Source: an uncultured Actinomycetes bacterium
GTDB lineage: Bacteria > Actinomycetota > Actinomycetes > UBA12327
Reading direction: 5' to 3'
NCBI GenBank assembly: GCA_903920865.1
Contig: CAIXNN010000036.1
Span: forward strand, 27,165-91,164
Length of the DNA stretch: 64,000 nt
The number at the start of each line of letters is the position of its first letter. Position 1 is the first letter of the stretch. Under the pieces are notes generated by a model. The model ran no database searches, was not told the origin of the DNA, and was given only the letters and a program-made list of their open reading frames with translations. This document shows, one piece after another, positions 18,069-37,504 of the stretch. Both the position numbers and the translations under genes were made by a program.

Positions 18069-18901
18069 GTATCAAAGTGTGGTTCGATTCAGAGTTGATA
18101 GCGGCCGATGCTGCCCACGTCAGCGTGTTCGATCGCAGCTTTAGTGTGGGCGATGGTGTGTTTGAAACGCTCAAGGTAGACCACTCCACTGCGTTGGCTT
18201 TGACTCGACACGTGAGACGACTTGCACGCTCTGCAGCTGGTTTAGGTTTACCTGAACCTGATCGTTTTTTGATAACCAACGCCGTTGCTGAGCTAATTGA
18301 TGCAAACAGTGCCGAGTTTGGATCAATGTCACGGTTGCGGATTCAGTATTCGGCTGGAACTGGGGGAGCTGGGTCGGAGCGCGCAAGTGAGCGCACGCGC
18401 ATCGTCATTACCCAAACCAAAGCCACGCAATGGCCGGCCACCACGCAGGTGATCACAGTGCCGTGGGCTCGCAACGAAAAGAGTCCCGTTGTTGGCTTGA
18501 AGACCACCTCCTATGCGGAGAATGTGGTGGCCCTCGCGCGCGCCAATGCGGTGGGCTCAGGGGAGGCTCTGTTCGCTAACACTGTGGGAGATCTATGTGA
18601 AGGCACCGGCTCGAATGTTTTTGTTGTTCTGGCTGGTCAGTTGTTAACCCCGCCGATTTCAAGTGGTTGCTTGCCAGGCATCACTCGCGAACTAGTTCTT
18701 GAATGGGTCGGTGCCCGGGAAACGGACTTGCCGATGTCGGCACTGGCGGATGCGCAAGAAATTTTCATCACGTCCTCAACGCGAGATATTCAACCGGTAA
18801 GTCACGTCGATGGACGGCTGGTAGAAATGGCGCCAGGGCCTGTAACCGTGCGTGCGCAGGAGATATTTGCACAACGCATGGCCCAGACCCCGGACCCCTG
18901 A
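18065..18901 (+). CDS. pabC: Class IV aminotransferase / aminodeoxychorismate lyase-like
   Basis: 278 aa. 4-nt overlap with the upstream gene. Fold-type IV PLP motifs (FDRSFSVGDGVFETLKV, ...ITSSTRDIQPV). Confidence 0.75.
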   Translation: MSIKVWFDSELIAADAAHVSVFDRSFSVGDGVFETLKVDHSTALALTRHVRRLARSAAGLGLPEPDRFLITNAVAELIDANSAEFGSMSRLRIQYSAGTGGAGSERASERTRIVITQTKATQWPATTQVITVPWARNEKSPVVGLKTTSYAENVVALARANAVGSGEALFANTVGDLCEGTGSNVFVVLAGQLLTPPISSGCLPGITRELVLEWVGARETDLPMSALADAQEIFITSSTRDIQPVSHVDGRLVEMAPGPVTVRAQEIFAQRMAQTPDP

Positions 18902-18917
18902 TCACCCCCTCAAGCGA

Positions 18918-19328
18918 TCAGGCAGCACCAAAGAGTTCAGCGATAGTTCGATCAAGATCGTTATCTAGGACTGCATCTTCGCGACCACGCTCAACAATGG
19001 TGTTCGTCTTATCAAGAAACCGTGCCAGGTCAACCACGTCAATGGCGAAGTGTGCAGTGCCACCAGGGGTGTGAAGGAGAAGGTGTACACCATCCTCATG
19101 TGGCTCTACGTGAACATCGCCATCGCCCACGGGGGTCTTCATCCCGTCCCACAGGAGGTCGCGCGCAATAGTCCAACGAACTCCGTGGTCGGCGGCCATA
19201 AAGGTCATGGTCACGGCAAGTGGATCCTCACCGGCATAGGCCACTTTGGTGCGAACAGGTAGAGCTGGTTCGTTGTCAACAACGAGCAGGACATCTAAGT
19301 CTTGGCTCAGGCTGGCTTGCGTACTCAT
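18918..19328 (-). CDS. ssgB: SsgA-like protein (SsgB-type cell-division/sporulation family)
   Basis: 136 aa. The pattern LLVVDNEPALPV...DPLAVTMTF...WTIARDLLWDGM...GDGDVHVEP...HLLLHTPGGTAHF parallels SsgB of Streptomyces, recalled from memory. Confidence 0.65.
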   Translation of the reverse strand: MSTQASLSQDLDVLLVVDNEPALPVRTKVAYAGEDPLAVTMTFMAADHGVRWTIARDLLWDGMKTPVGDGDVHVEPHEDGVHLLLHTPGGTAHFAIDVVDLARFLDKTNTIVERGREDAVLDNDLDRTIAELFGAA

Positions 19329-19418
19329 GTCCCCTCCTTAGGGCGTTCACCGCGGTCACGGTGTCTCAAAGTCCTTATTCCCCAATCGGCACGGTTTATG
19401 CAGTGCAACAATAAAAAA

Positions 19419-19853
19419 ATGGAAAATTTTGAATCCGAGTCGATAAAGGCACAAAGGGACCGCAAAAAGTACCTGCGGCCTGGCTGGTTAGAGGCCCTGC
19501 GACTCAAGATTGCCCGAAACCGGGTGCTCGAGATCGTTTACCGAGTAGCGGTTTTGGTCGTGGGTTTGGCGATCTTGCTTGCCGGCCTTGCGATGCTGAT
19601 CCTGCCTGGACCGGGCTGGGCGGCCATTGTGTTGGGATTGTTGGTGCTTGCTACCGAGTTTGTCTGGGCAGAGGTCTTATTGGAACCTTTGCAGCGTTTC
19701 ATTCAATGGCTAGCTAGGCGGGCCAAGGACCCCAGGGCTCGCGCACAAAACATTGTCTTTGTCGCCTTGGTGCTGGTATCCCTAGCCTTGGGCCTGTGGT
19801 GGTACCTGAATCGCTACGGCCTCACGCTTGAGCCGCTTCCCTTTTTCAACTAA
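19419..19853 (+). CDS. PGPGW-motif small membrane protein
   Basis: Start taken at ATG 19419 (MENFES...). Two hydrophobic helices with LILPGPGWAAIV between them. Confidence 0.6.
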   Translation: MENFESESIKAQRDRKKYLRPGWLEALRLKIARNRVLEIVYRVAVLVVGLAILLAGLAMLILPGPGWAAIVLGLLVLATEFVWAEVLLEPLQRFIQWLARRAKDPRARAQNIVFVALVLVSLALGLWWYLNRYGLTLEPLPFFN

Positions 19854-19908
19854 GCGTTGCCCGATTGGCGAACTTCTGCTTGCGCTAACATCAGCAATCC
19901 GCATTAGC

Positions 19909-19983
19909 GGGCGATTGGCGCAGTGGTAGCGCGCTTCGTTCACACCGAAGAGGTCACTGGTTCGAACCCAGTATCGCCCACCA
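19909..19983 (+). tRNA. tRNA-Val (anticodon CAC), CCA encoded
   Basis: Acceptor GGGCGAU/AUCGCCC, anticodon loop UUCACAC, T-loop GGUUCGAACCC, ACCA 3' end. The spurious ORF 19923-20156 covers it. Confidence 0.85.
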
Positions 19984-20080
19984 TTACAGCCATGTGTACC
20001 AAGGCTTGTCGCACCTTGAAACCATTCGCACCATGGGGAAGTCTGACTAAATTAAACGGCGGGAACTCGCGGCTTAGCTC

Positions 20081-22273
20081 CTACACCGCTGAAGCTTTCG
20101 CGCGGGCCTGCGCGGCAAGTGCTGCGCAGTGCGGGCAGTTATCGCCGCGCACATGAATATCCACGGGGCGAGGAGTCCACGATCCGTCGGCACCGTTTTC
20201 GCACGCCAGACAGCGCGCCGCAGTTGGGGTGTCATCGCTCTTGGGGTTTGCCAGCCACGTGAACGCCCCGTCGAGTGGGTCCTCTTTCGGCGTTGGTTGC
20301 CGCGCGCGCGAGACCAGATCGGCCACGACCGCAGCATTTTGAAGCGTGGTGATATCGCCCAAATCTCGACCTTCGCTGATGTCGCGCAGAAGACGTCTCA
20401 TGATCTTGCCCGAACCGGTCTTGGGCAGTTCATCGGTGATCACAATGGAGGACGGCCTGGCAAAGCGACCGATCCGACCGGCCACGTGATCGCGCAGTTC
20501 GGTGATCAATTCATCGCTTGGTTCAACCGAGTTCTTGAGCGTGACGAAAGCCGCGATTGACTGACCCGTCATTGGATCTGCACGACCAACTACCGCCGCC
20601 TCTGCCACCGCGTGGTGATCTAGAAGAGCGGCTTCGAGCTCAACGGTTGAGAGGCGATGGCCTGACACGTTCATCACGTCGTCGATGCGACCGACAACCC
20701 AGATGTAGTCATCGTCATCACGCCTTGATCCGTCGCCGGCTAGGTATCGCCCTGGGTATTGCGACCAGTAGGTCTTCAGATAGCGCTCGTCGTCACCCCA
20801 CAGCGTTCGCATCATCGCTGGCCATGGGCCATCAAGCATGAGCAAACCGCCCTGGCCTGATTCGACACTTGTGCCATCCTCATTGATGACGTCTGCGCGG
20901 ATGCCCGGCAGCGGGAATGTGGCTGAACCAGGCTTGAGTGGAACCGCCCCTGGAAGCGGAGCGATCATGATCATGCCGGTTTCGGTTTGCCACCACGTGT
21001 CGACAATGGGACAGCGCCCACCGCCGACGTTGGTGTAATACCAGTCCCAGGCTTCGGGCTTGATCGGCTCACCCACCGAACCCAGCAGACGCAGTGACGT
21101 GAGGTCGTGCTTCTGGAGGTGTTCAACCCCCCACTTCATGAAGGTGTGGATAGCAGTAGGCGCGGTGTACAGGATCGTCACGCCGTAGCGCTCGATGATG
21201 CTCCAAACGCGATCTTTGTCCGGTGTGCCAGGTGCGCCTTCGTACATGACTCCTGTGGTGCCGTTGGCTAGCGGGCCGTAAACGATGTAACTGTGACCGG
21301 TAATCCAACCGATGTCGGCCGCACACCAGTAAATGTCATCACTATGGATGTCGAAGACCTGGCGATGAGTCGTGGAGACACCGACGAGATATCCGCCGGT
21401 GGTGTGCAAGATGCCTTTGGGCTTTCCAGTGGTGCCGGAGGTGTAGAGCACGAAGAGGGGATCTTCGGCATCCATCGGTTCGGGATCACAGGTGTCAGGC
21501 TGGTTCGCAACGAGCTCGTGGTACCAGTGATCGCGTCCATCAACCCACTCAACGGGGCTGCCCGTTCGTCGAGTGACAACGACGTTGGTCACTGAAGGAC
21601 AGGTCAGGAGCGCTTCGTCAACTGGCCCCTTGAGCGCAATTGAGCGGCCGTGCCGCCACGACTCGTCCTGCGTGATGACTGTGGTGCAGACCAGGTCGTT
21701 GATCCGGTCAGCGATTGCGGTGGGACTGAATCCAGCGAAGACGACGGTGTGAGGTGCCCCGATGCGTGCGCAGGCCAGCATGGCAACCGGTAGTTCAGGG
21801 ACCATGCCCATGTAGATCGCCACGGGGTCGCCCTTGCGAACGCCCAATTCCCGCAGCGCGTTGGCCATGCGACAGACGCGAGCATGCAGGTCCAGGAAAG
21901 TGATCGACTCGGTTTCGCCGGGCTCACCTTCCCAAAAGTAAGCAACCTGGTCACCCTTGGTGGGAAGGTGACGATCAAGGCAGTTCACCGACACGTTCAA
22001 TTTTCCATCGACAAACCACTTGTAGAACGGAGCATTGGAGTCATCGAGCACCTGAGTCCAAGGAGATATCCAGTCGATGCTTTGAGCCTGTTCGGCCCAG
22101 TAGCCCGTGAGGTCCTGTTCGGCCTGCTTGTAGAGCGAGCGGTCGGTGATCGCCGAGTGGGAGACGAACTCGGCCGAGGGCGCAAACATGTGATCATCGG
22201 TTTGGATGACTTCGATCAGTGGACCGCTTTGCGTTGTCAAATCTGGCGCATCGGAGCCGGGCCTTTCAGCCAT
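20081..22273 (-). CDS. acs: Acetyl-CoA synthetase (AMP-forming) with a ~70-aa C-terminal Cys-containing extension
   Basis: AMP-binding core (YTSGTTGKPKG, PKTGSGKIMRR with the conserved regulatory Lys). After LGDITTLQNAAVVADLV the ORF continues ~72 aa with CLACENG...(21 aa)...CPHC. Confidence 0.9.
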   Translation of the reverse strand: MAERPGSDAPDLTTQSGPLIEVIQTDDHMFAPSAEFVSHSAITDRSLYKQAEQDLTGYWAEQAQSIDWISPWTQVLDDSNAPFYKWFVDGKLNVSVNCLDRHLPTKGDQVAYFWEGEPGETESITFLDLHARVCRMANALRELGVRKGDPVAIYMGMVPELPVAMLACARIGAPHTVVFAGFSPTAIADRINDLVCTTVITQDESWRHGRSIALKGPVDEALLTCPSVTNVVVTRRTGSPVEWVDGRDHWYHELVANQPDTCDPEPMDAEDPLFVLYTSGTTGKPKGILHTTGGYLVGVSTTHRQVFDIHSDDIYWCAADIGWITGHSYIVYGPLANGTTGVMYEGAPGTPDKDRVWSIIERYGVTILYTAPTAIHTFMKWGVEHLQKHDLTSLRLLGSVGEPIKPEAWDWYYTNVGGGRCPIVDTWWQTETGMIMIAPLPGAVPLKPGSATFPLPGIRADVINEDGTSVESGQGGLLMLDGPWPAMMRTLWGDDERYLKTYWSQYPGRYLAGDGSRRDDDDYIWVVGRIDDVMNVSGHRLSTVELEAALLDHHAVAEAAVVGRADPMTGQSIAAFVTLKNSVEPSDELITELRDHVAGRIGRFARPSSIVITDELPKTGSGKIMRRLLRDISEGRDLGDITTLQNAAVVADLVSRARQPTPKEDPLDGAFTWLANPKSDDTPTAARCLACENGADGSWTPRPVDIHVRGDNCPHCAALAAQARAKASAV

Positions 22274-22377
22274 CAGTTACCTCGTAGGGTCATCGTTCCC
22301 GTACGAGAGACCGTCCGGCTCTCCCGTTGATTCTCATTCAATCGGAAATGCAAGGACGGCGCAAGCAGGTTGGCAAT

Positions 22378-23073
22378 CTACGACGATGTTGAGGAAACTG
22401 CTCGAGCGATAAGTACCGTCAGCATGCTCACGGCTAACAGCACTTGGAATGCCATAACGAGTTTGCCCACGCGAGACATGATCGCCTCAGAGGTTGGCCC
22501 ATAGGTTGAGTTGACGTTGAGGGAAATAAATAAGTAGTCAAGGAAGTTTGGTGTGGGCGGCTTTTCGCCTTCGCGCGCGGGCCAGACGAATGCTCCACCC
22601 GGGGTGGTGACGTCAATAAAGATGTAGACGAACGTAAAGACCAGCACGCTCATCAGGTAGACGAGGCCGACGTCCCACAAAGAGGTGAGTCCGCCACCTT
22701 GATGGGCGTTGGCGGTTCCCAACATGGAGATCACGTTAAGCACAACCTGGAAAACGGCGTATGCCAAGTAAACGGCAATGAATTTCGACAACGTGACAAA
22801 TTTGTCAGCCAGAATCGCGTAGATCATGATGCAGCTCGAAATGACGAAAAGGAACGTCCCGAAGAGTTCAAGGTTGTCGAAAAGCTTCAGCTCTGAGGTG
22901 ATGTAGCCACCATGAATCAAGTGTCGAGTCAGCAACGTATGGAGAAACCAAATCAGAACCAAGGCGCCAACAAGTCCAAAGCGGCCTTTGCCGTGGTGCA
23001 GTTGAGCCCAAAATTCTTGTGCGGGTGCTAACTCGGAGGTCATGGCAGCGCTGTCGTCTTTATCGTGTTCCAC
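22378..23073 (-). CDS. Hypothetical integral membrane protein
   Basis: 231 aa with about 5-6 hydrophobic segments. Lower-GC codon usage than its neighbours, judged by eye. Family not assigned. Confidence 0.5.
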   Translation of the reverse strand: MEHDKDDSAAMTSELAPAQEFWAQLHHGKGRFGLVGALVLIWFLHTLLTRHLIHGGYITSELKLFDNLELFGTFLFVISSCIMIYAILADKFVTLSKFIAVYLAYAVFQVVLNVISMLGTANAHQGGGLTSLWDVGLVYLMSVLVFTFVYIFIDVTTPGGAFVWPAREGEKPPTPNFLDYLFISLNVNSTYGPTSEAIMSRVGKLVMAFQVLLAVSMLTVLIARAVSSTSS

Positions 23074-23141
23074 CTCCTCAGCCTAGGGCTTTTGTGTCAG
23101 GTAGGCAGGGCTTCGAGGTGCCACCCGCCAAATCTTGCGCT

Positions 23142-24368
23142 CTAGAGCCTGGCTACAAAGTCAAAACTGTCGCGCTTGTAGCGCTTGAGGAAGCGGCTGC
23201 AGCCTTCTTGAATATTGGGATCCAACTTGGCGCAGATCGGGTCGCCATTGGATGCATGCCGAAAGTAGAAGCCGGCCACCCACCAGTTATTCATGTCCAA
23301 AACCATGGCCCGCTTAACACCTGCGTTGACCATCGTGTTGGCCATGCCTTGCGCACTTAAGCCGGGTGAACCGATGTAGATGATGCTGCCGTCGGCTCGT
23401 TGGCCAATGGCCGACCGCCAAGCAAAGGTTTCGCCGTGGGTGGTGGCACCCCACTGGAAGCTGTTTCCTGATTGAACTCGAGACGATCCGCCATCAATGA
23501 TCAAGGCCAAATTTTGTCGAGCGATCTCAACGTCTTTGGTCATGTTGACATCGCGTCCCCACTTACCGATCTTGATGGATCCATCGTTGTAAATCACCGC
23601 TGTTGCTTTACCTGAAACCAGAGGCCGCACCGTGGTGCCTTTGTAGTAGTACCCGCCACGGGTGTCATCGAGGCGAAAGGCGCCGTTGAAGTTCGCCAGC
23701 ACGCGAGATTGAAGGGATTTGCTCAATGCGCCGTTGGTAGGTGAGGGGCCACCGGGCTCTATGTAGCCGGGAACAAAGACTGCCTTGGCCAGATCAGTGT
23801 TGATCCACATCAGTGAGGCAAAAACCGAGGTGTGAATGTTGTCGGCACGAACTCGTGTCACATAGATCGCCGGTTTTCCGTTAACCGTCGAGCCAACGGG
23901 CACCCATGCCCCTTCACCCTTGAGTTTTTTTGACACCGGGGAGTCGACGGTGGCTGGGGGAGCAAGGTTTGTGGTGGCCAGCGAGTCAAGGTTCGAGCTC
24001 AAGGAAGAAGTTTGACTGGCTTGTGTCGATTGATCATTAGATGCACGAGTTGATTTTTGGCTTGATGCGGTCGCTCCGGGCTGCGTTGGCTCTGGAGTCG
24101 GGTCGGTCGTGGCCGCCGGTGATTGGACTTCGTTAAAACCTGGAACAGCGGTAGGTGATCCACCAACCGGCACCTTATTGATGTGGGCGTAATAGAAATC
24201 TTCTGCCTTCGCCACAACCGGACCTAAGTGGTGGTCGCGACCCCATTCGGCCAGGAGGACATTTTTCGGTTCGCCTTCAGAGTTTTGCACATAGCTAGAA
24301 AACGATGCAACAAAGCCGATGGCCGCAAGTGCTGCAATCCCAAGAATTGCGAAGACGATTCGTTTCAC
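23142..24368 (-). CDS. Phosphodiester glycosidase-family protein (NAGPA-like), N-terminal signal/anchor
   Basis: 408 aa. N-terminal hydrophobic helix, Thr/Pro/Ser-rich linker, then the domain with ANFNGAFRLDDTRGGYYYKGT...WRSAIGQRADGSIIYIGSPGLSA...AMVLDMNNWW. Paralogous to 25376-26569. Confidence 0.7.
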   Translation of the reverse strand: MKRIVFAILGIAALAAIGFVASFSSYVQNSEGEPKNVLLAEWGRDHHLGPVVAKAEDFYYAHINKVPVGGSPTAVPGFNEVQSPAATTDPTPEPTQPGATASSQKSTRASNDQSTQASQTSSLSSNLDSLATTNLAPPATVDSPVSKKLKGEGAWVPVGSTVNGKPAIYVTRVRADNIHTSVFASLMWINTDLAKAVFVPGYIEPGGPSPTNGALSKSLQSRVLANFNGAFRLDDTRGGYYYKGTTVRPLVSGKATAVIYNDGSIKIGKWGRDVNMTKDVEIARQNLALIIDGGSSRVQSGNSFQWGATTHGETFAWRSAIGQRADGSIIYIGSPGLSAQGMANTMVNAGVKRAMVLDMNNWWVAGFYFRHASNGDPICAKLDPNIQEGCSRFLKRYKRDSFDFVARL

Positions 24369-24371
24369 TAG

Positions 24372-25364
24372 CTACACCTGATAAATCTCTCCGGTTGTCT
24401 TATCAATGCTTACTTTGATCGCACTAAGTGGCGATGGTGCTGGTCCACCTGTGACTTGGGCTCCATGAGCTGGGTCGTAGGTGGCGCCATGACAGGGACA
24501 AATGAGTTGTTTGGAGCTCGGATCAAAATCCACGCTACAGCCCGCATGCGTGCAAACTCGTGAGTACGCCGCAACCGCGCCGCCACCTAAGCTGACGACC
24601 ACCGCCGGACTTCCGTTCGCATCTTGAAATCCAACAGCTCCTTGGCTCTGTACATCGGCAAGGCTTGCCACCACGGTGCCATTGGGCTGGTTGGCGCCTG
24701 AGGCCTTCTTAGCGGACGCCCTTTTAGTTGTTACCTTCTCTGGAGGTTTGCCCAAGGCAGAGGCGATTCCCCCGACCACAAGAGAAATCGCGATGATGAC
24801 ACCGCCACCGAGTAATTGGCGTCGATCGGTAAGCGATTGCTGAAGTGTGGGCGCTGTCTTGTTCTTTGCTCGTTCTTTAGTGGTGGTCGTCGGTTGTTTT
24901 GAAATCAAAGCAAGCACCATAGGAAAGGAGACGAGGTAGGCAAGCCAGGCGATCGTGTAGATCGAATCCGAACCGAGGAAGTAAGGACGAACATGCCAGG
25001 TTGCCGAAAGCCAAAGAGTTAGAGATAAGCCCATCCCTAGAAGTGCGGCAAGTTCGGGCAGGATCCCAGCCAAGGTGGCAAGGCCAATGGCGATCTCGCT
25101 TAATGCGGTGCCAACTCCAGCAAGAACGGGAGCATGACCTGCGGCATGTAAGAACGGCGCGATTGGACTTCCCTTGGCGAAGTTGGACAGCTGTAATCCG
25201 ATGTAGCTGGCCGTACCGGATTTCAAGAATCCTGGGTCAGACAACTTTTGCCAGCCGGCGTAAACAAAGGTGCCTCCAAGCCAACCCCGCAAGATGCGGG
25301 CCGTCCAGGATTGCTGGGGCCAACTCAGCAACTGAACGGTTGGTGGACTTGTGGCGTTACTCAT
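24372..25364 (-). CDS. DoxX-like membrane domain fused to a C-terminal Rieske [2Fe-2S] domain
   Basis: N-terminal ~150 aa has 4 hydrophobic helices (DoxX/TQO-small-subunit-like). A DRRQLLGGGVIIAISLVV Tat-like motif plus helix follows. The C-terminus carries CTHAGCSV...(16)...CPCHGATYD, the Rieske boxes CxH and CxxH. Confidence 0.7.
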   Translation of the reverse strand: MSNATSPPTVQLLSWPQQSWTARILRGWLGGTFVYAGWQKLSDPGFLKSGTASYIGLQLSNFAKGSPIAPFLHAAGHAPVLAGVGTALSEIAIGLATLAGILPELAALLGMGLSLTLWLSATWHVRPYFLGSDSIYTIAWLAYLVSFPMVLALISKQPTTTTKERAKNKTAPTLQQSLTDRRQLLGGGVIIAISLVVGGIASALGKPPEKVTTKRASAKKASGANQPNGTVVASLADVQSQGAVGFQDANGSPAVVVSLGGGAVAAYSRVCTHAGCSVDFDPSSKQLICPCHGATYDPAHGAQVTGGPAPSPLSAIKVSIDKTTGEIYQV

Positions 25365-25375
25365 GAGGATTCCCC

Positions 25376-26569
25376 TTATTTTGAATAAACCGCGAAGAAG
25401 TCGCGACTTGTTGGTGTGAGGTAGCGATTGACGGGGCGTTCAAAGGGAACGAGTTTGTGTGGTTGCAACGAACCACCTCCGTCGGTGAAATACATGTAGG
25501 AGATCCACGCTTTGTTGATGTCCAATTGCATGCCGCGAACCGCACCCGCGTGTAACAGGAGCGTGGCTAGGCTCTTCACCGACAGGGCGTCGCCGGCAAC
25601 ATAAACGAGGTCACCGCGCTTGGTGATTCCAATGCCAGAGCGCCACACAAAGTAGGCACCGCCCAGAGTTGCGCCCCACTTGGATTCCACATTCTTAGTT
25701 AAGTCTGAAGTGACTTGTCCGTTTTCAATCAGTGGTTTCAAACTTTGACGAACCGAGACCACAGCTGGGCTCATGCGGACGTCTTTATCCCAGGATCCAA
25801 CATCGGCATGACCGTCCCGATAGACCACCAGAGATGCCGCTCCTGGTTGCAGAGTGCCAGCTGTTTTCCCATCCTGGTAGTAGCCACCTTTCGCGTCCTT
25901 GATCTTGAATCCGCCATTAAAGGTTGCGATCAGGTTTGATCCAGGAGCTGCAGAAACAAAATCGCGATTGGACCAACTGGAAACATTTCCTGGATCTTCA
26001 TGACCTGGGTGCTGTACAAGGGCTGTGTGAGTGTGATTGAGCCACACCACTCCCGCCAGATAGGACGAATGTTGATTGTCGGGGCGGAGGTAGGCGATAG
26101 CCGATGTGGGATCGCCATTGTGGCTAGTAACCGTGTGGAAGATGCCTTCACCAGAGACAACACCGCTGGCGAAGGGCCGTAGGCGAGTTGGGTAAAACGA
26201 AGTATGCGTAGGTGAGCTGCCGGAGGCTGAGTTACTTTGCGTCGCGGCTTGTTGCGGAAGTGCGTTGATGATTGATGTATCGGGAGCGCCACCGATTTTT
26301 GGAGGATGCAAGCGATAGAGAGCAGATTCTGCACCTGTAACGACAAAACCTAGTTGGTGATCACGGGCCCACTCAGCCAGCTTTGCGCTCGTGGGGTCAG
26401 CGCTGGGAGATCGCAGCGCATTGACCGGGCCGATGGCAACGAGCACCACGACCACGAGAGCAATGGTTCGCAGCAGCCGAGCAATCCTTTTTCGCTTGCC
26501 TGGTTTCGTTAACCGACGGTCTTGACCGAGGCTGCGGATAGGAGGTTGTTGAGCAGGTGCAGGAGTCAA
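25376..26569 (-). CDS. Phosphodiester glycosidase-family protein (NAGPA-like), paralog 2
   Basis: 397 aa. Basic N-terminus plus one TM helix. Domain motifs ATFNGGFKIKDAKGGYYQDGKT...WRSGIGITKRGDLVYVAGDALS...GMQLDINKAW parallel the 23142-24368 product. Confidence 0.7.
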   Translation of the reverse strand: MTPAPAQQPPIRSLGQDRRLTKPGKRKRIARLLRTIALVVVVLVAIGPVNALRSPSADPTSAKLAEWARDHQLGFVVTGAESALYRLHPPKIGGAPDTSIINALPQQAATQSNSASGSSPTHTSFYPTRLRPFASGVVSGEGIFHTVTSHNGDPTSAIAYLRPDNQHSSYLAGVVWLNHTHTALVQHPGHEDPGNVSSWSNRDFVSAAPGSNLIATFNGGFKIKDAKGGYYQDGKTAGTLQPGAASLVVYRDGHADVGSWDKDVRMSPAVVSVRQSLKPLIENGQVTSDLTKNVESKWGATLGGAYFVWRSGIGITKRGDLVYVAGDALSVKSLATLLLHAGAVRGMQLDINKAWISYMYFTDGGGSLQPHKLVPFERPVNRYLTPTSRDFFAVYSK

Positions 26570-26726
26570 CAGTGCTCCCGTCGGATTGAAGTGTTACGTG
26601 CGTTGGATTCCGCTTTGCGACCCTAACTTTAGGTCCGAGTCGATGAATCGCGCTCACCCAAATCACTCATTTAGGCTTGAGAGAGCCATTCATATGGCGT
26701 GCTTAGGTTGTGGTTAGCATTGGGGA

Positions 26727-28012
26727 ATGTCCTTGCCTCCTACATCAGTGCACTCGGGGCGAGTCGTTGTCTTGTCGGCCAGCATTGGCGATGGACACAA
26801 TAGGGCAGCTCGAGAGTTGGCCAGGCGATTAACCGCGCGAGGCCAAGACGTCGATGTTCTGGATTTTTTAGAGCTGCTTCCGCTCAAGCTCGGTTCCTTG
26901 CTTCGCCGAATCTATGCGCTCCAGTTGAGTATTTGCCCACGTTCCTATGGTTCGCTCTATGCCGGTCTGGAAGACAGTAGTCATGCGATAAGCGTCGTTC
27001 GCTGGATGTTGAGTCTGGGACGACGCCGGTTTCTCAAGGCGCGCAAGGATGTTCTGGCGTCGTAGTGACCTATCCGCTTGCCGGACAAGTCCTAGGCAAA
27101 CTGCGGTCACAATCCAAACTTGAAGTACCGCTGTGGATTTATCTGACGGACTTCTCAGTTCATCCTCTGTGGGTTGTTCCTGAGGCCGACATGCACTTGG
27201 TTTTGCATCAAGTTGTTGCCGATCAGGTGCATGCCTTGAGTGTGTTTGCAAAGGTTCGAGTCAGCGGAAGTTTAGTTTCGCCAGCTTTCACCCGTCGACC
27301 GGCTGACAAAGAGCCAAAGCACGAGCTTCGATCTTCCCTCGGGCTGCCTTTGAAGCAGCCGATTGCGCTCTTGGTCGCGGGTTCTTGGGGTGTGGGCAAA
27401 GTGGTCCAGACTGCGCAGGAAATTCTGGCCAGTGGCCGAGCTATACCGGTGGTCATGTGCGGTCGCAACGCTAAATTGGTAACCGATATTAAACGCCGAG
27501 GACTGGGCATCGCCATTGGGTGGACCAACGCCATGCATGACTATATGAACGCAGCTGATGTTCTTGTTCACAATGCCGGGGGAATGAGTTCGTTAGAGGG
27601 ACTGGCCAGCGGCCTTCCGGTCCTCAGCATGAATTGCTTACCAGGGCATGGCCAAGCAAATGCAGCGGCGATGGAATCGGCTGGGCTCGCTCGCCATGTA
27701 GATACAACCCTGGGATTTGCAGCGATCTTCGAACAGGTACTTGATAAGCCAGTCATCGCACCAAGATCACTATTTGGTGACGATCCCAGTGACGACGTGT
27801 GTGACTTTCTTGAACGCGATGCTCGGGCCAAGCCGCTGCACACGCAGCCAGTACAGCCGTCCCGCGGGATGCGTCGAAAGGTTGCGGTAGGCGCACTGGG
27901 TGTCACCTTGATTGCAGTTTTTGCTGTCAGTCCGATCGGAGTTGCGGTCGCTAAACCGATTTATCGATCCCACCCGAACTTGACACCGCATCCAAGTTTT
28001 AGGCATTGGTAA
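26727..28012 (+). pseudogene. UgtP/MGDG-synthase-like glycosyltransferase split by a frameshift into 112-aa and 315-aa ORFs
   Basis: ORF1 (26727-27065) carries the family N-terminus VVVLSASIGDGHNRAARELARRL. ORF2 starts at 27065 overlapping the ORF1 stop and continues in another frame with the rest of the family architecture (TYPLAGQVLGKL...WIYLTDFSVHPLWV...LLVAGSWG...HNAGGMSSLEGLASGLPVL). The junction DVLAS|TYPLAG fits a single indel. Confidence 0.6.
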
Positions 28013-28017
28013 TTTAG

Positions 28018-28737
28018 GTGGGCGCTTCATCCAAGTCGTTCCTCTGTTTGATGGCCGTTGCAGCGCTGGGTCATGTTGGCCCGGCAGTAACGTCAATTGG
28101 CCCTTTGCGAAAAAAACTGTGGCCGCAACTGTGCGGTGTCGGCAATACGCACAGCATTGGTCTCACGTTTGATGATGGACCAGATCCGGCCTCAACGCCC
28201 TTGTTTCTCGCAGCGCTGTCTGAAATGGGCGTGAAAGCAACTTTCTTCGTCCTGGGTGAAATGCTGGACAAGGCACCTGAGCTTGGCCGGCAGATTGCGG
28301 CGGAAGGCCACGAGATTGGGATTCACGGGTGGACTCATCGCAACCACTTGCTGCTGAGCTACCCGCAAATCCGCGATGAGATTCGCCGCACGAAAGCCCG
28401 GATTCAAGACATCGCCGGCGTGACGCCGCGCTTTTATCGACCCCCGTACGGCGTGGTGACGGGCGGAGATTTGCTCGCCGTCAGGACACAAGACATGGAA
28501 CTTGTCTTGTGGACATCCTGGGGGAAGGACTGGCAGGCGCGAGCCACCGGAGAGTCTGTCATTGAGGAACTTAAGAAGGGCGGCGTGGTGGGTGGGGCAA
28601 CACTTTTGCTCCACGACAGTGACTGCACATCGGCTCCCGGCTCGTGGAGGTCGTCGTTGTCTGCCCTGTCCGAGTTGTCTAGTTATTGTGTGGAACAAAG
28701 GCTTGATCTAGTTCCACTTGCGGAACACATGAAGTGA
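28018..28737 (+). CDS. Polysaccharide deacetylase (NodB-homology)
   Basis: Signal peptide, then LTFDDGPDP, HGWTHR and RPPYG motifs of the carbohydrate esterase 4 family. Confidence 0.8.
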   Translation: MGASSKSFLCLMAVAALGHVGPAVTSIGPLRKKLWPQLCGVGNTHSIGLTFDDGPDPASTPLFLAALSEMGVKATFFVLGEMLDKAPELGRQIAAEGHEIGIHGWTHRNHLLLSYPQIRDEIRRTKARIQDIAGVTPRFYRPPYGVVTGGDLLAVRTQDMELVLWTSWGKDWQARATGESVIEELKKGGVVGGATLLLHDSDCTSAPGSWRSSLSALSELSSYCVEQRLDLVPLAEHMK

Positions 28738-28742
28738 ACCAG

Positions 28743-29138
28743 TTATTTTGAAGAGGTGTCATCCGTCCACGATGAGCCATCCCAAAACCGATTAATGGTC
28801 GAGTCACTGGGGTCTGCGTACCAACCGGCTGGTGTGGGGGAGTGTTGAGTTAGGGCAGCGGCGAGGCCCTGTAGATCCTTGCGCTGTTTGCGACGGAAGT
28901 GCAGTTGGATCCTGCGGCCATCGGTGGTGAACAAGTCAATGCGCCCATTGACCAGCATGAACATAAATGCGTTGGGTTGCTTAACTTTGACGTCAGCAAC
29001 TTGATTGCGCTCCAAAATCAAGGGCTGATCCCATGACTGACCTGCCAAGGCAATCTTTGACATCTTGTTGGTTCCAACGATGTTGATCGCATGTCCGTCA
29101 TAATCAATGGTCACCATGTACCCCGTGAAAGTTGTCAT
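28743..29138 (-). CDS. Bacterial PH-like N-terminal domain with DUF2510-like C-terminal motif
   Basis: 131 aa. The C-terminus GWYADPSDSTINRFWDGSSWTDD is the DUF2510 motif. The N-terminal ~95 aa are beta-rich (MVTIDYDGHAINIVG...NGRIDLFTTDGRRIQLHF), like bPH/DUF4429-type domains. Confidence 0.55.
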   Translation of the reverse strand: MTTFTGYMVTIDYDGHAINIVGTNKMSKIALAGQSWDQPLILERNQVADVKVKQPNAFMFMLVNGRIDLFTTDGRRIQLHFRRKQRKDLQGLAAALTQHSPTPAGWYADPSDSTINRFWDGSSWTDDTSSK

Positions 29139-29253
29139 AGACCCACGCTAACCCCGTGGGCAGACAGGTTCTGGGCGCCTTGCTCGGTAGGCTGAGGGCA
29201 TTCCCACAGGTAGGCGTGGGATTCACTGCTGGTTCAAGGCCTGGGAGAGCGCT

Positions 29254-31248
29254 GTGTCAACGCTGAGCGTCACGATCGATGGAGTGCCAAGCGAGTGTGC
29301 TGCTGGCGCGACCGGTCTGGATGTCTTTGCCGAGCGCCGTGAAGTAGTAGTCATGCGCATCGATGGCGAATTGCGCGACTTGCATTTGCCCATTGAAGCC
29401 GGTCAGGCCATTGAAGCGGTCACCATTGATTCACCCGATGGCCTGATGGTGATGCGCCATTCAACGGCTCACGTTTTGGCCCAAGCCGTTCAGCAGATCA
29501 ATCCGAGCGCGAAGCTAGGCATCGGACCGCCGATTGACAACGGTTTCTACTATGACTTTGACGTGGAAACGCCATTCACGCCCGATGACCTCAAGGCCAT
29601 TGAAAAGCGCATGGAACAGATCGTTAAACAGGGTCAACGCTTTGCTCGTCGAGTTGTGACCGATGAAGCGGCCCGTACTGAACTGGCTCACGAGCCGTAC
29701 AAATTAGAGTTGATCGGCCTTAAGGGTGGCGCGGACCTAGACGGCGATGTGATGGAAGTTGGCGGCGCGGAATTGACGATGTATGACAACGTCAATGCCA
29801 AGACCGGCGAGCGCGAATGGTTTGACCTGTGCCGCGGCCCGCACGTGCCCACCACGCGGTTGATCCCAGCCTTTAAGTTGATGCGTTCGGCGGCGGCGTA
29901 TTGGCGCGGGAGCGAAAAGAATCCGCAGCTGCAGCGAATCTATGGCACCGCGTGGGCTAGCCGCGATGACCTCAAGGCGCACCTGACCTTTTTGGAAGAG
30001 GCGGAAAAGCGCGACCACCGTCGCCTAGGCACCGAGCTTGACCTGTTTTCCTTCCCTGACGAAATCGGTTCAGGCTTGGCGGTGTTCCACCCCAAGGGCG
30101 GAATCATCCGTCGCGTCATGGAGGACTACTCGCGCAAGCAACACGAAGCCGCGAACTATGAGTTTGTGTACAGCCCGCACTTGACCAAGTCGATCTTGTT
30201 TGAAAAATCAGGTCACTTGGACTGGTACTCCGAAGGCATGTACCCACCGATGGACTTGGACACCGAGTACGACGCCGATGGTCAGGTCAAACGCCAGGGC
30301 GCTCAGTACTACATGAAGCCCATGAACTGTCCGTTCCACAACTTGATCTATAGCGCGCGCGGACGCTCCTATCGCGAACTGCCGTTACGCTTGTTTGAAT
30401 TCGGAACGGTGTATCGCTACGAGAAGTCCGGTGTGGTCCATGGCTTGACCCGCGCCCGCGGATTTACCCAGGACGATGCGCACATCTATTGCACGCGCGA
30501 ACAGATGGCCGAAGAACTTGATCGCTTGTTGACCTTCGTGCTGGACCTGTTGCGCGACTACGGGCTCGATGACTTCTACCTTGAGTTGTCCACCCGCGAT
30601 CCGAACAAGTCCATCGGCAGCGATGAGGTGTGGGAGGAAGCCACTGAGGTTTTGCGCTCGGTAGCGCAGAATCAGGGACTGGAATTGGTCATGGACCCTG
30701 AAGGCGCTGCCTTCTACGGCCCGAAGATTTCCGTCCAAACGCGCGACGCCATTGGCCGCTCATGGCAAATGTCCACCATTCAGGTTGACTTCAACTTGCC
30801 CGAGCGCTTTGACCTTGAATACCAAGCATCTGATGGCTCTCGCCAACGACCGGTGATGATTCACCGCGCGCTCTTTGGTTCCATTGAGCGCTTCTTTGCG
30901 GTTTTGCTTGAACACTATGCCGGGGCTTTCCCTCCGTGGTTAGCTCCCGTTCAAGTTGTCGGGATCCCGATTGCCGACGAACACGTTCCGTACTTGGAAG
31001 GCGTAGCTGAAAAACTTCGCGCGGCCGGCATTCGCGTTGAGGTGGATGCATCAAGCGAGCGGATGCAAAAGAAAATTCGCAATGCGCAAAAACAAAAAGT
31101 CCCTTACATGCTTATCGCCGGTGATGAAGATGCGGCTGCGGGCGCAGTCTCATTCCGTTTTCGTGATGGAACCCAAGACAATGGCGTTGTCGTCGATGAA
31201 GCAATCGCGCGCGTAGTCGATGCGGTTAACCGACGCATCCAGGTGTGA
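29254..31248 (+). CDS. thrS: Threonine--tRNA ligase
   Basis: 664 aa. TGS N-terminus, second additional domain, class II core ([11 protein letters not shown], motif 2/3) and the anticodon-binding C-terminus. Confidence 0.95.
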
Positions 31249-31775
31249 TGATGAGTTACACGGATGCCTTTGATCGCCTCTGGACGCCACATCGAATGGC
31301 GTACATCAAGGGTGAAAACAAGCCGAGCACAGCCGATGCTGGTGATCACTGTCCCTTTTGCAGTTCACCGCACGACCCCGCTGAGGAATCACTGGTCATA
31401 GCAACCGGACAGCACGTTTATGCGGTTCTCAATCGCTACCCCTACAACGCCGGTCACCTTTTGATCTGCCCCTTTGAGCACCTGGCTGATTACATTGACT
31501 TGCCAACGGGAGCATTAGCTGAGTTCACCGAGTTCACGGTTACTGCGATCAATGTTCTTAAGGAAGTCTCACGTCCTGCTGGCTTCAATATCGGGATGAA
31601 TCAGGGCGGTGCTGCAGGTGCCGGAATTGCCGCACACCTGCACCAACATGTGGTGCCTCGCTGGGGCGGGGATACAAATTTCATGCCCGTGGTTGCCGGG
31701 ACCCGCATATTGCCCGAGTTATTAGTACAAACCCGTGAGCTTTTGTCGCAGGCCTGGAGTCAGCATGCTGGCTAA
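31245..31775 (+). CDS. HIT-family protein (histidine triad)
   Basis: [10 protein letters not shown] is the HxHxHxx triad. 4-nt overlap with thrS, as in the mycobacterial thrS-HIT-pgsA operon. Confidence 0.85.
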
Positions 31776-31807
31776 CATCGTTGCTGTAAACCATCAAGGG
31801 TCGGGAG

Positions 31808-32437
31808 GTGGAGCCAGTGAGTCAGCCAGCTGAACTCGAGCGGAAAGCAAAAGCTAAGGACCTTGCTTCACGTGCCATTGATCCGATCGCGCGGGGCCTG
31901 CTAAAGCTTCATGTCTCTGCTGACGCGGTAACAATCACTGGAACCCTGGGAGCGGTGGTTGCCGCTTTGTGGTGCTTTCCAACCGGCCACCTTGTTGCGG
32001 GAGCAATCATCGTCTCACTCTTCGCTTTCAGTGACATGATTGATGGCTCCATGGCCCGGCAAGCTGGGAAGGTTTCGGAGTGGGGAGCCTTTCTCGATTC
32101 GCTCCTTGATCGCGTAACCGATGCGGCTATTTTTGCCGGCTTGACGATTTGGTTTTTGGGAAATGGCAATGAGCCAATTCTTGGATACGCATCGCTTTAT
32201 TGCTTAGCCGCCGGCCAAGTCATTAGTTATGCGCGCGCCCGAGCTGAAGGTTTGGGTCTGAAAGCTTCAGGTGGCATTGCCGAGCGAACCGAGCGCCTTG
32301 TTCTTGTCCTGACAGTGACCGTGTTCTCAGGTCTTGGGGTTCCTTTTGTCCAGGCCATTGGTTTGTGGGTCTTGGTTGCGGCCATCACCGCTACCGTCAT
32401 TCAACGCATGATCATGGTTCGTCGGCAGGTTTCCTAA
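31808..32437 (+). CDS. pgsA: CDP-alcohol phosphatidyltransferase (phosphatidylinositol phosphate synthase-like)
   Basis: The DMIDGSMARQAGKVSEWGAFLDSLLDRVTD motif is D-x2-DG-x2-AR...G-x3-D-x3-D. Positioned between HIT and the acyltransferase. Confidence 0.8.
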   Translation: MEPVSQPAELERKAKAKDLASRAIDPIARGLLKLHVSADAVTITGTLGAVVAALWCFPTGHLVAGAIIVSLFAFSDMIDGSMARQAGKVSEWGAFLDSLLDRVTDAAIFAGLTIWFLGNGNEPILGYASLYCLAAGQVISYARARAEGLGLKASGGIAERTERLVLVLTVTVFSGLGVPFVQAIGLWVLVAAITATVIQRMIMVRRQVS

Positions 32438-33343
32438 GTGGGCAATGTGCGCGATCGCGCCGTGGATCTGGCGTATGCAGCTGGCTGGAGTGTGGCCGGA
32501 GCGGTTCCGGAGCGCCTGGTTCGTAAGTCATTTTCGGTGCTTGCTGATCAAACCTGGGCACGCGATGGGGATGGCGTACGACGACTCAGTTCGAATCTGG
32601 CACGCGTGGTTGACCCGAACACCTCTCCTGCTGAGCTTGCCGAGCTAACTCGCCTATCGATGCAGTCCTATATGAGGTACTGGCGCGAAACGTTTTCATT
32701 GGCGCAATGGAGTCGCGAAGAGGTCCTTTCTCGCATTCATGTTGTCAATCCAGAGGTGGTTCAAACTCTCGTTGATGATGACCGTGGCTTGGTGATTGCT
32801 CTATCTCACAGTGGCAACTGGGATTTAGGTGGTGCGTGGCTCGGCATTGCCCATGGCGCCTTCACAACCGTTGCTGAACGCCTCAAGCCAGAAGCACTCT
32901 TTGAGAGATTCAAAGCCCATCGTGAGTCTTTGGGGATGGAAATCTTGGCTGCTGATGGTGGGCCGAGAGTTTTAGCCACCATGAAAACTCGACTGCGTGA
33001 AGGTGGCATTGTGTGCTTGCTTGCCGATCGTGATCTGAGTGGAAATGGAATCCCAGTCAATTTCTTCGGCGCCCCGGCCCACTTTCCGGCCGGTCCTGCT
33101 GCGCTGGCCACAAGCACCGGCGCTGCTTTGCTTACCGTGCGGTTTTATTACAAGGGCGAGCAGATGGCCATTGAGTTTGATGAACCATTGCGTGAAGTAT
33201 TGCCGGCGACAGCTCCTAGGCATGATCGAATTCAGGTGTTGACTCAGCAGATGGCCGATGCCTTCCAAGCAAATATCAGTGCCCATCCCACGGACTGGCA
33301 CATGATGCAGCCGTTCTGGGATGAGGATCGGGGATTGTTGTGA
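32438..33343 (+). CDS. Lipid A biosynthesis-type (LpxL/HtrB family) acyltransferase, PIM acyltransferase-like
   Basis: 301 aa. HSGNWDLGG is an HX4D-like acyltransferase motif variant. Location matches the Rv2611c-type gene. Confidence 0.75.
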   Translation: MGNVRDRAVDLAYAAGWSVAGAVPERLVRKSFSVLADQTWARDGDGVRRLSSNLARVVDPNTSPAELAELTRLSMQSYMRYWRETFSLAQWSREEVLSRIHVVNPEVVQTLVDDDRGLVIALSHSGNWDLGGAWLGIAHGAFTTVAERLKPEALFERFKAHRESLGMEILAADGGPRVLATMKTRLREGGIVCLLADRDLSGNGIPVNFFGAPAHFPAGPAALATSTGAALLTVRFYYKGEQMAIEFDEPLREVLPATAPRHDRIQVLTQQMADAFQANISAHPTDWHMMQPFWDEDRGLL

Positions 33344-34584
33344 GCGAATCTGAGTTGATCAGTGCGGAGGGGACCGATTCCAGCGGCCCATCGCCCACGC
33401 ACCAATTTCGACGAATCGGGATCGTGTGCCCATATTCCTGGGATGCGCCCGGTGGGGTGCAGACTCATGTTCGCGACTTAGCCCATGCCCTGATCGCCAA
33501 GGGGTACGAAGTTTCGGTGCTGGCTCCTGGTGATGATGAACCAGATGAGGATTTTGTGGTCTCGGCCGGACGAGCAATTCCCATTCGCTACAACGGTTCG
33601 GTCGCCCGCTTGATTTTCGGGCCACTGTCCACGCAGCGAGTGCGCAGGTGGATTGATGAAGGTCACTTTGACATCTTGCACGTGCACGAACCGGCCGCAC
33701 CAAGTTTGTCACTAGTTGCAACGTGGGCGGCCGAAGGTGCAATCGTTGGCACGTTCCACACCTCAAATGAAAACTCACGAATGATGTCCGGCACCGCGAG
33801 AATCTTGCGATCAGCCCTAGAGAAACTCAATGGGCGCATTTCGGTCAGCGAGTATGCGCGTGAAACCTTGCGCGAGCACATCGGATTTGATTCAGTCATC
33901 GTTCCCAATGGAGTTGATGTTGCGTTTTATGCCGACGCTGAGCCGATGACTTCCACTCCTGTTGACGCTGAAGTGGTCACCTTCTTGGGCCGGGTTGATG
34001 AACCACGTAAAGGTTTTCAGGTATTTGCTCAAGCGATGCAGGCCATTGCGCGAGAGCGGACCGAGGCGGTGTTTTACGTTGCCGGGCCAGGTGATGTGGA
34101 TTCTGCCCTGAAGTTAGTCCCGCGCTCACTCCATGGGCGCATCCATTTCATGGGTCGAATATCTGATGGGCAAAAGGCTGCTCTGCTTCGTCGAAGCAAC
34201 GTATTTGTTGCCCCCAACACCGGCGGAGAGAGTTTCGGAATTATTTTGCTTGAGGCCATGGCCGCCGGTGCGTGCGTGGTGGCAAGCGACCTTGAAGCCT
34301 TCGTCAAGGTGCTGGGAGACGATGGCGCTGGGCGCCTTTTCCCCAATGAGGACTATGAAGCATTAGCACGTGAAGTCATTGAATTATTGACGGACAAGGC
34401 TGTCCGAGAGCGCATTGCTCATCACGGTCGCGATCGGGCGTATTCCTACGATTGGAATGCGGTGGTCAATGAAGTCATAGAAATTTATGACACGGTTTAT
34501 GTGCCCGGTGAGGTTGTTCGTGAAGATGTAGGTGCAACCGCACTTGGTCGCGCAAAACTTTGGGGCAGGGGTGATTCATCGTGA
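33340..34584 (+). CDS. pimA: GT4-family phosphatidylinositol alpha-mannosyltransferase
   Basis: 414 aa. N-terminal GIVCPYSWDAPGGVQTHVRDLA and the C-terminal GT-B nucleotide-sugar domain (ESFGIILLEAMAAG). Confidence 0.8.
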   Translation: MSESELISAEGTDSSGPSPTHQFRRIGIVCPYSWDAPGGVQTHVRDLAHALIAKGYEVSVLAPGDDEPDEDFVVSAGRAIPIRYNGSVARLIFGPLSTQRVRRWIDEGHFDILHVHEPAAPSLSLVATWAAEGAIVGTFHTSNENSRMMSGTARILRSALEKLNGRISVSEYARETLREHIGFDSVIVPNGVDVAFYADAEPMTSTPVDAEVVTFLGRVDEPRKGFQVFAQAMQAIARERTEAVFYVAGPGDVDSALKLVPRSLHGRIHFMGRISDGQKAALLRRSNVFVAPNTGGESFGIILLEAMAAGACVVASDLEAFVKVLGDDGAGRLFPNEDYEALAREVIELLTDKAVRERIAHHGRDRAYSYDWNAVVNEVIEIYDTVYVPGEVVREDVGATALGRAKLWGRGDSS

Positions 34585-35165
34585 ACTGGTCTACCTGGGC
34601 ATTACTTGCCGCGGTAATCATTGGTGTGTATTTGAGTCAGCTGGCCGGGCGCCTTGACCGTTTACACATCAGAGTTGATCGCGCCGAAGCAGCACTTCGC
34701 GCGCAACTCTTGCGCCGAGCGAGCGAAGCCATCGAGCTGGCAGCCATGGACGGGCCCCTTGATCCAGCTGCTCGTATAACCATCGATGGCTTTGCTCATG
34801 CAGCCCGAGATTTTGGCGAAACAGATCTGGAGAAGGATCACCGAGCTCAGCGACTCGAGCAAGCTGGACGAAACGAAGCTGAAGGTGAATTGACACAAGC
34901 CCTGCAGGCGGCTTTGCCCGATGAGCAAAGTGTCATGGAGTATGCGGCCATAGGCGGGGGTTCCGAGTTGATGGAAGAGCTCGATTCGACCACTCGCAGA
35001 GTTGAACTAGCCAAGGGCTTTCATGCCGACGCGGTTGCCCAGTGCCAAAAGATGAGGCGACGAGCAATCGTGCGGTTCCTGCACCTACAAGGACGCGCCC
35101 CGTGGCCGGAGTTTATTGACATTAACCTGGCTCAACCGACTGGTTTCGCGCATCGTTCGCGTTAA
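34581..35165 (+). CDS. Hypothetical membrane-anchored protein (LemA-like, tentative)
   Basis: N-terminal TM helix, then a helical region whose spacing (LxxLxxRLDR...RAQLLRRA...EAEGELTQAL) resembles the LemA family. 4-nt overlap with pimA. Confidence 0.4.
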   Translation: MNWSTWALLAAVIIGVYLSQLAGRLDRLHIRVDRAEAALRAQLLRRASEAIELAAMDGPLDPAARITIDGFAHAARDFGETDLEKDHRAQRLEQAGRNEAEGELTQALQAALPDEQSVMEYAAIGGGSELMEELDSTTRRVELAKGFHADAVAQCQKMRRRAIVRFLHLQGRAPWPEFIDINLAQPTGFAHRSR

Positions 35166-35244
35166 GGCTCCAACGTCAGACTCCTGAATTTGCCGATTGC
35201 GCCATCGCCTACGATGGACACCTAGGGCCATCAACTGTTGAGGT

Positions 35245-36147
35245 TTGAACGTGACTGAGAATCAAGGAACCACCGGCACCAGCGCCGTCAAGCGCGGTAT
35301 GGCAGACATGCTCAAGGGTGGCGTCATCATGGACGTTATTGACGCGCAGCAAGCGCGCATTGCCCAAGATGCTGGTGCGGTAGCAGTCATGGCCCTTGAG
35401 CGCGTTCCGGCCGACATTCGTCGCGACGGGGGCGTAGCTCGGATGTCTGATCCAGACATGATCGAGTCCATCATCGAAGCAGTGTCCATCCCGGTGATGG
35501 CAAAGGCGCGAATTGGTCACTTTGTTGAGGCCCAAGTCCTTCAATCACTTGGCGTGGACTACATCGACGAATCGGAAGTGCTCACGCCGGCAGATGAGGT
35601 CAATCACATCAATAAGTGGAACTTCACAGTTCCCTTTGTTTGCGGAGCCACCGACCTAGGTGAAGCCCTTCGGCGCATCGGTGAAGGTGCGGCCATGATT
35701 CGTTCAAAGGGTGAGGCCGGCACAGGAAATGTCGTTGAGGCCACGCGTCATATGCGCCAAATTCTTAACGACATCCGCCGACTAAGCACTTTGGATGAGG
35801 ACGAACTTTTTGTTGCAGCCAAGGAACTTCGCGCACCAGTTGGATTGGTTCAAGAAGTGGCCGAGAAGGCAGCCTTGCCCGTGGTGCTCTTTACTGCAGG
35901 AGGAATTGCCACCCCAGCCGACGCGGCCATGATGATGCAACTGGGAGCTCAGGGAGTTTTCGTGGGCTCGGGAATCTTCAAGTCGGGGGACCCGGTAAAG
36001 CGCGCCGAAGCAATCGTTAAGGCAACCACTTTTTACAACGACCCTGACGTTATCGCGAAGGTCTCTCGCGGCTTGGGTGAGGCGATGGTGGGAATCAACA
36101 TTTCGACCTTGCCCACGGACCAGCGTTTCGCCGACCGCGGCTGGTGA
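35245..36147 (+). CDS. pdxS: Pyridoxal 5'-phosphate synthase lyase subunit
   Basis: [43 protein letters not shown] is near-identical to PdxS/SNZ family proteins. Confidence 0.95.
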
Positions 36148-37495: not shown

Positions 37496-37504
37496 CGTTC
37501 ATCC

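Follow-up and report, generated by a model that had tools for sequence, protein, structure and literature searches.

A frameshifted MGDG-synthase-like glycosyltransferase gene beside a polysaccharide deacetylase gene in an uncultured freshwater actinomycete

Two open reading frames (ORFs) on the forward strand of a 64-kb stretch of an uncultured freshwater actinomycete genome (hereafter "the window") raise the question of whether they encode two proteins or the pieces of one broken gene and, if the latter, whether the break exists in the organism or only in its assembled sequence. The first ORF (26727–27065, frame 0) encodes 112 amino acids and the second (27065–28012, frame 2) encodes 315 amino acids. 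A single G is shared by the TAG stop of the 112-aa ORF and the GTG start of the 315-aa ORF, which lie in different frames.

One glycosyltransferase in two reading frames

A Pfam search with the 112-aa piece alone returned zero matches. The 315-aa piece alone matched PF06925 (MGDG_synth) from profile position 96 (96–152, 27.7 bits), and models of the GT-B C-terminal domain were matched below threshold. Joining the two translations gave an unbroken PF06925 match over profile positions 1–152 (43.4 bits), with which the repaired 428-aa protein passes the gathering cut-off of 25 bits, and PF00534 and PF13692 also match within the glycosyltransferase. In database searches, the joined protein aligned over 100% of its length with a 428-aa protein (P0001) at 98% identity, with a second protein (P0002) at 87%, and with hundreds of actinomycete "MGDG synthase family glycosyltransferases" at 41–51%; intact 428-aa orthologues are known at 98–99.8% identity. 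The joined PF06925 match and the intact orthologues confirm, at the level of sequence, that the split gene is real and far outside chance. By homology, the 112-aa and 315-aa ORFs are the halves of a single 428-aa GT-B glycosyltransferase of the MGDG-synthase/UgtP/MurG (GT28-like) family. The initial annotation had described one glycosyltransferase of the MGDG-synthase/UgtP family with a single 1-nt frameshift, and both the joined match and the alignment with the DNA of relatives bear this out. Its prediction of one restored ORF also stands, although the length is 428 aa and not the ~425 aa that it gave.

The position of the frameshift is different from that first proposed. DNA alignment with five to six related metagenome contigs of different assemblies, including L001 (a JGI metagenome contig), L002 and L003 (ENA "GROS21" assemblies), L092, and L093, shows that a single T is absent between 27042 and 27043, where the window reads GGCGC-GCAAGG and all relatives compared read GGCGCTGCAAGG. 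The lesion is thus the ancestral Leu106 codon CTG without its T (GCGC[T]GCAAGG), and over 27038–27048 the T-containing form is GCGCTGCAAGG and the T-less form GCGCGCAAGG. Intact orthologues read RRRFLKA-L-QGCSGVVVTYPLAGQ across the lesion; the window encodes RRRFLKA in frame 0 and QGCSGVVVTYPLAGQ in frame 2, with frame-0 homology stopping at FLKA (27041) and frame-2 homology beginning at QGCSGVVVTYPLAG (27044). Alignment to intact orthologues, a check that the initial annotation had suggested, therefore locates the indel at 27042/27043, 20 nt upstream of the premature TAG, and not at the stop/start overlap (27063–27065) where homology had been thought to pass from one frame to the other. The peptide RKDVLAS, previously read as part of the family homology, is out-of-frame and occurs in zero intact orthologues, which have LQGCSGVV at the same place.

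The fold of the intact enzyme was examined using its orthologue P0001. The AlphaFold model (60 homologues; pLDDT 85.8, pTM 0.85) has the two Rossmann domains of a GT-B enzyme, and its C-terminal helices (389–415) form a hydrophobic tail. The top Foldseek match in the PDB is Arabidopsis MGD1 (4wyi/4x1t), and MurG (3s2u and 1f0k) and other GT-B enzymes are among the matches. Residues G21, G23, and H24 are invariant in the 60 homologues, and H24 aligns with His155 (GGGH) of MGD1 in a full-length profile alignment; the MGD1 H155A mutant was reported to be inactive (PMC12022483).

The window retains codons 1–105 in the original frame (26727–27041), identical to residues 1–105 of the intact orthologues and including the loop G21-x-G23-H24, in which H24 is the putative catalytic His. 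The allele as written then continues through seven wrong codons, the tail RKDVLAS, to the premature stop at 27063–27065 (27042–27065 in all). Codons 107–428 and the TAA (28010–28012) lie in the −1 frame (27044–28012), which encodes, according to Pfam and the structure model, what is left of the N-terminal Rossmann domain, the complete C-terminal domain for nucleotide-sugar binding, and the C-terminal hydrophobic helix. All sugar-nucleotide-binding parts are encoded in this other frame, whose earliest possible start is GTG 27065 (Val114). Mapped onto the model, the 112-aa product would keep the catalytic His24 loop and end at helix 84–105, before strand 109–114 of the N-terminal Rossmann domain, so the frameshift would cut the N-terminal domain and place the catalytic His and the donor-binding domain in different frames. 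The window copy has no uninterrupted reading frame and is a disrupted family member; the allele as written is null.

Neighbouring genes and variability of the locus

The initial annotation described the glycosyltransferase gene as divergent from a "PDG operon" and as lying ahead of a polysaccharide deacetylase gene. The ORF map and Pfam agree, the divergent genes being those for NAGPA (phosphodiester glycosidase). Downstream is an intact carbohydrate esterase family 4 (CE4) polysaccharide deacetylase gene (28051–28737, forward strand; PF01522, E = 1.6e-32), which encodes 228 aa from ATG 28051; its longest ORF begins at GTG 28018, and 228 aa is the length called in relatives. Upstream, the divergent intergenic region (26570–26726) presumably holds the promoters of both directions, and a promoter and terminator scan found no sigma-70-like site within it. 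Beyond it, on the reverse strand, are an intact NAGPA gene (25376–26569), an intact gene for a DoxX–Rieske fusion (24372–25364), and a second intact NAGPA gene (23142–24368). The fusion protein joins a DoxX/DoxD membrane domain to a C-terminal Rieske 2Fe-2S domain, and its arrangement between two NAGPA genes is kept in all close relatives (L002, L008, and L011). The immediate neighbours of the glycosyltransferase–CE4 pair in the window are a DUF2510 gene, thrS, and the NAGPA genes.

The conservation of this neighbourhood was assessed with a family-profile scan of the GTDB species representatives, which identified at least 529 relatives at only 40–50% identity; 80 loci were fetched, 73 of them with enough downstream sequence. 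A NAGPA gene is near the glycosyltransferase gene in only 2 of the 80 related loci, which rules out a conserved functional association with the NAGPA genes and removes the tie to a "PDG operon" made in the initial annotation. Scanning the GTDB representative genomes with P0001 itself yielded no close relative, and the lineage carrying this gene is therefore without a species representative.

Within the population, the locus is variable. In three relatives (L008, L009, and L010), a 2.46-kb block of the window (2,457 bp, 26402–28858; blastn breakpoints), containing the NAGPA 5' end, the glycosyltransferase gene, the CE4 gene, and the DUF2510 3' end, is replaced by ~270 bp without similarity (L008 9781–10051). 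These three carry a P0135-type NAGPA gene, found on 11 contigs, and their flanks are 99.4% identical to the window over the adjacent 9.8 kb. The block behaves as a small islet that some members of one species-level population have and others do not, and we infer that the sister genomes lost it. Because near-identical sister genomes are without the whole block, the glycosyltransferase–CE4 module is dispensable in this population, and the envelope product of the pair is non-essential there. The relevance of a loss to an envelope locus, as raised in the initial annotation, is retained, but the consequence is probably mild given these sister genomes.

The glycosyltransferase gene is also the most divergent gene of its neighbourhood. 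Between the window and L002, its dS is 0.166, its dN 0.060, and its omega 0.36, compared with an omega of 0.13 for the CE4 gene, while the flanks are 98–100% identical (HIT 100%, one NAGPA gene 99.8%, and thrS 98.1%). The DUF2510 gene (28743–29138, reverse strand) is 99% identical to L002/L003 and ~80% identical to L001, and the glycosyltransferase gene has the reverse pattern, at 99% to L001 and 92% to L002. These opposed identities indicate probable mosaic recombination across the locus. The presence/absence variation and the divergence of the glycosyltransferase gene are what an envelope locus that is recombining and dispensable would be expected to show.

Several other features of the window and its relatives were recorded. 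L008 has a 3.2-kb insertion (16450–19812) adjoining tRNA-Val, with a SNIPE/T5orf172-domain gene and a 425-aa ORF. It is flanked by two copies of a ~97-bp segment present only once in the window (19908–20004; tRNA-Val cac 19909–19983), and looks like a small integrated element that is not in the window. A SAM-IV riboswitch (15186–15313, forward strand; 55.5 bits against a gathering score of 38) lies 38 nt 5' of a 178-aa ORF (15351–15887, forward strand), whose L011 homologue has a dual-specificity phosphatase domain (PF00782), an unusual gene behind a SAM riboswitch. A c-di-GMP-I riboswitch (62896–62973, forward strand) is located between two forward-strand ORFs, one PilC/GspF-like by eye (61423–62655) and one with the type IV pilin N-terminal motif GFTLIELLVV (62923–63474), which suggests that a pilin gene may be under c-di-GMP control in this actinomycete.

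Null allele, consensus error, or recoding

If the gene were still functional, it would have to be read through a programmed −1 frameshift or transcriptional slippage, or its product would have to reassemble from polypeptides 1–112 and 114–428, the latter re-initiated at TAGTG. The overlap of TAG (27063–27065) with the downstream-frame GTG (27065–27067) has a geometry that fits termination-reinitiation, and split GT28-like enzymes occur naturally, as in Alg13/Alg14. However, no homopolymer or X XXY YYZ heptamer is present within 27030–27065, so the remark in the initial annotation that the junction has no slippery or homopolymeric sequence holds at the true site as well. Moreover, every relative compared has a single frame and hence there is no conserved recoding site; programmed frameshifting and slippage are ruled out by the absent slippery motif and the unconserved two-frame arrangement. 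Reassembly of two polypeptides is opposed by the position of the break, which in the model would fall inside the N-terminal Rossmann domain (between helix 84–105 and strand 109–114) and not in an interdomain linker, by the removal or replacement of residues 106–113, and by the lack of an obvious Shine-Dalgarno sequence 5' of GTG 27065. A gene that still functions in either way is highly improbable.

The choice between a pseudogene and an assembly indel, the pair of alternatives already named in the initial annotation, turns on the intact relatives and on the quality of the assembly. The other eight proteins of the 90% cluster, which come from different assemblies, are all full-length at 428 aa and read FLKALQGCSGVVVTYPLAGQ; they answer in the affirmative the earlier question of whether related strains carry an intact gene. 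Records of the 315-aa fragment are confined to a single contig, the 102,209-bp one from a metagenome-assembled genome (MAG) to which the window belongs. Contigs L092 (3,534 bp) and L093 (1,415 bp) are identical to the window except for the T and two SNPs, at 26803 (G/C, with G in the window) and 27955 (A/G, with A in the window). On the window branch within the gene there are three substitutions, one synonymous and two non-synonymous (outgroup L002 and L003), too few to detect relaxed selection; the window allele has zero further disabling mutations and no non-synonymous excess. The absence of secondary decay leaves two readings, a very young lesion or one that does not exist in the organism.

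According to the second of these readings, the gene is intact in the organism and the T was lost when the sequences of a mixed-strain population were assembled, binned, or polished. Such an error is expected to leave the same near identity to intact alleles and the same absence of decay, and the window does belong to a MAG contig. A consensus error is possible rather than probable, given that the T-less allele is known from one MAG contig only, shows no decay, and has an essentially identical intact counterpart, one of the eight intact siblings being only two SNPs away in 3.5 kb. On the other hand, the lesion site is not a homopolymer, and short-read de Bruijn assemblers seldom create indels without read support.

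The surrounding assembly likewise speaks against an error. Window positions 28859–38638 are 99.4% identical to L008, a 688-kb scaffold, with zero gaps over 9,780 bp. Gaps in the alignment of 18644–26401 with L008 are compensated alignment noise inside one divergent gene (22378–23082) or are intergenic, and those in the alignment of 24000–32417 with L001–L003 are likewise compensated or intergenic, apart from the T. The T deletion is the sole frame-breaking difference in the ~19.9 kb comparable with relatives, and the lack of any other net indel against near-identical contigs implies a low indel error rate of the assembly. The rest of the window has a dense and continuous ORF map in which full-length msrB, pdxS, pdxT, yebC, and ruvCAB are recognisable. 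Other candidate broken genes (the msrB region, 10091–11147, and pdxS-pdxT-yebC-ruvCAB, 35242–39659) were rejected, as the ORF map and the indels relative to L001–L003 and L008 show their overlaps to be those of normal intact genes.

Gene loss at this locus is clearly tolerated in the population, a further point against an error, and a real loss-of-function allele is plausible because the locus is recombining and dispensable. With moderate confidence, we interpret the frameshift as a real, very recent strain-level null allele (pseudogene), a reading favoured by the non-homopolymer site, the otherwise indel-free assembly, and a locus that is dispensable and variable in the population. The window allele would then be a genuine, very recent loss-of-function variant of a single strain of this uncultured freshwater actinomycete. 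Under either reading, the finding is an ordinary one for a MAG, an accessory envelope gene with a frameshift. In the annotation of this genome, the two ORFs should form a single entry, either a frameshifted pseudogene or a gene marked for checking against the reads, and not two proteins.

The glycosyltransferase–deacetylase pair and its relation to known systems

The finding of wider interest, a by-product of this analysis, is that an MGDG-synthase-like transferase and a CE4 deacetylase are conserved together across many actinomycetes, including Streptomyces. Of 73 actinomycete loci, 68 have a CE4 homologue just 3' of the glycosyltransferase gene and in the same orientation; the loci come from Streptomyces, Kitasatospora, Actinoallomurus, Kutzneria, Micromonospora, Pseudonocardia, and others. 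The same order occurs in L004–L007, which include a Streptomyces chromosome, where the stop and start overlap, and another actinomycete MAG. A literature search on Streptomyces combined with MGDG synthase and (polysaccharide) deacetylase found no report. As to neighbours of the pair, a BlaI-like repressor gene is within 5 kb in 41 of 80 actinomycete loci, an M48 BlaR1-like protease gene in 31 of 80, and BacA (undecaprenyl-diphosphatase) near the pair in 12 of 80; the window has neither the repressor nor the protease. These neighbours hint at regulation by envelope stress or antibiotics.

The best NCBIfam model for the intact enzyme is the diglucosyl-DAG synthase UgtP (NF010135), at 116.3 bits against an equivalog cut-off of 500, and NF010134 scores 73.9 bits against 557. 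An identity as a diglucosyl-diacylglycerol synthase is not supported by these scores, which are far under the cut-offs; the UgtP match indicates likeness at the family level only. The diglycosyl-diacylglycerol synthase label of the initial annotation is thus not upheld, and the CE4 pairing in 68 of 73 loci points elsewhere. This tight pairing argues for an N-acetyl-hexosamine transferase of the HexS/HexD type, described below, rather than a diglycosyl-DAG synthase, and we infer by analogy that the intact actinomycete pair may make an amino-sugar membrane lipid. In the proposed mechanism, the intact transferase would add N-acetyl-hexosamine to diacylglycerol or a glycolipid at the membrane, and the CE4 deacetylase would then yield a cationic amino-sugar lipid. 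With the frameshift, this lipid would no longer be made, and expression of the deacetylase would probably be reduced through polarity. A broader scenario, which we put forward tentatively and consider rather unlikely, is that the pair represents an uncharacterised cationic amino-sugar glycolipid pathway, analogous to HexS/HexD, widespread in actinomycetes (at least 529 GTDB species) and often accompanied by a neighbouring BlaI/BlaR1-like sensor. One population of a freshwater lineage would then be losing this pathway in two independent ways, through the frameshift and through the block deletion. If this were true, it would point to selection, for example by phage or through envelope-charge trade-offs, rather than to drift.

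Amongst enzymes of known structure, the best sequence match is UgtP/YpfP of Bacillus/Staphylococcus, a processive DAG beta-glucosyltransferase (9wde; profile E = 2.4e-33). Both enzymes have the GT-B architecture and a GxGH loop, but identity is ~20–25% (our own estimate from the alignments) and UgtP has no paired deacetylase. The best structural match is the GT28 enzyme MGD1 of Arabidopsis (4wyi/4x1t; Foldseek E = 7.6e-16, TM 0.71 on the target), which aligns over its full length in the profile alignment (E = 8e-26, with H24 on the catalytic His155) at 18–19% identity. MGD1 and MurG differ from the actinomycete enzyme in acceptor and donor context (plastid galactolipid for MGD1 and lipid I for MurG) and are likewise without a partner deacetylase.

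The two-step logic proposed here, by contrast, has counterparts in two characterised systems. In Pseudomonas aeruginosa, the cytoplasmic glycosyltransferase GpgS adds GlcNAc to a membrane lipid and the deacetylase GpgD converts the product to a cationic GlcN lipid, glucosaminyl-phosphatidylglycerol (PMC12713373). The likeness to GpgS/GpgD is one of analogy only, as these proteins belong to other families (GT4 and COG3233).

HexS and HexD of Clostridioides difficile are the sole characterised pair of the two families found here. HexS, of the MGDG-synthase family, is needed for an N-acetyl-hexosaminyl glycolipid intermediate, which the polysaccharide deacetylase HexD deacetylates to form aminohexosyl-hexosyl-diradylglycerol, and loss of the hex operon lowers resistance to daptomycin and bacitracin (PMC10128005). 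Compared by family annotation and gene order, the actinomycete pair has the same annotated families, order, and strand, and would share the logic of placing HexNAc onto a lipid followed by de-N-acetylation. The systems differ in that the genes adjacent to the pair here include neither an MprF-like flippase gene (hexF) nor a HexRK-type two-component system; about half of the actinomycete loci have an adjacent BlaI/BlaR1-like pair instead, and BlaI/M48 genes are present in L004–L007. In addition, the actinomycete glycosyltransferase carries a hydrophobic helix at its C-terminus, and in the window this glycosyltransferase is frameshifted. The likeness to HexSD nevertheless provides a hypothesis that can be tested in cultivable Streptomyces.
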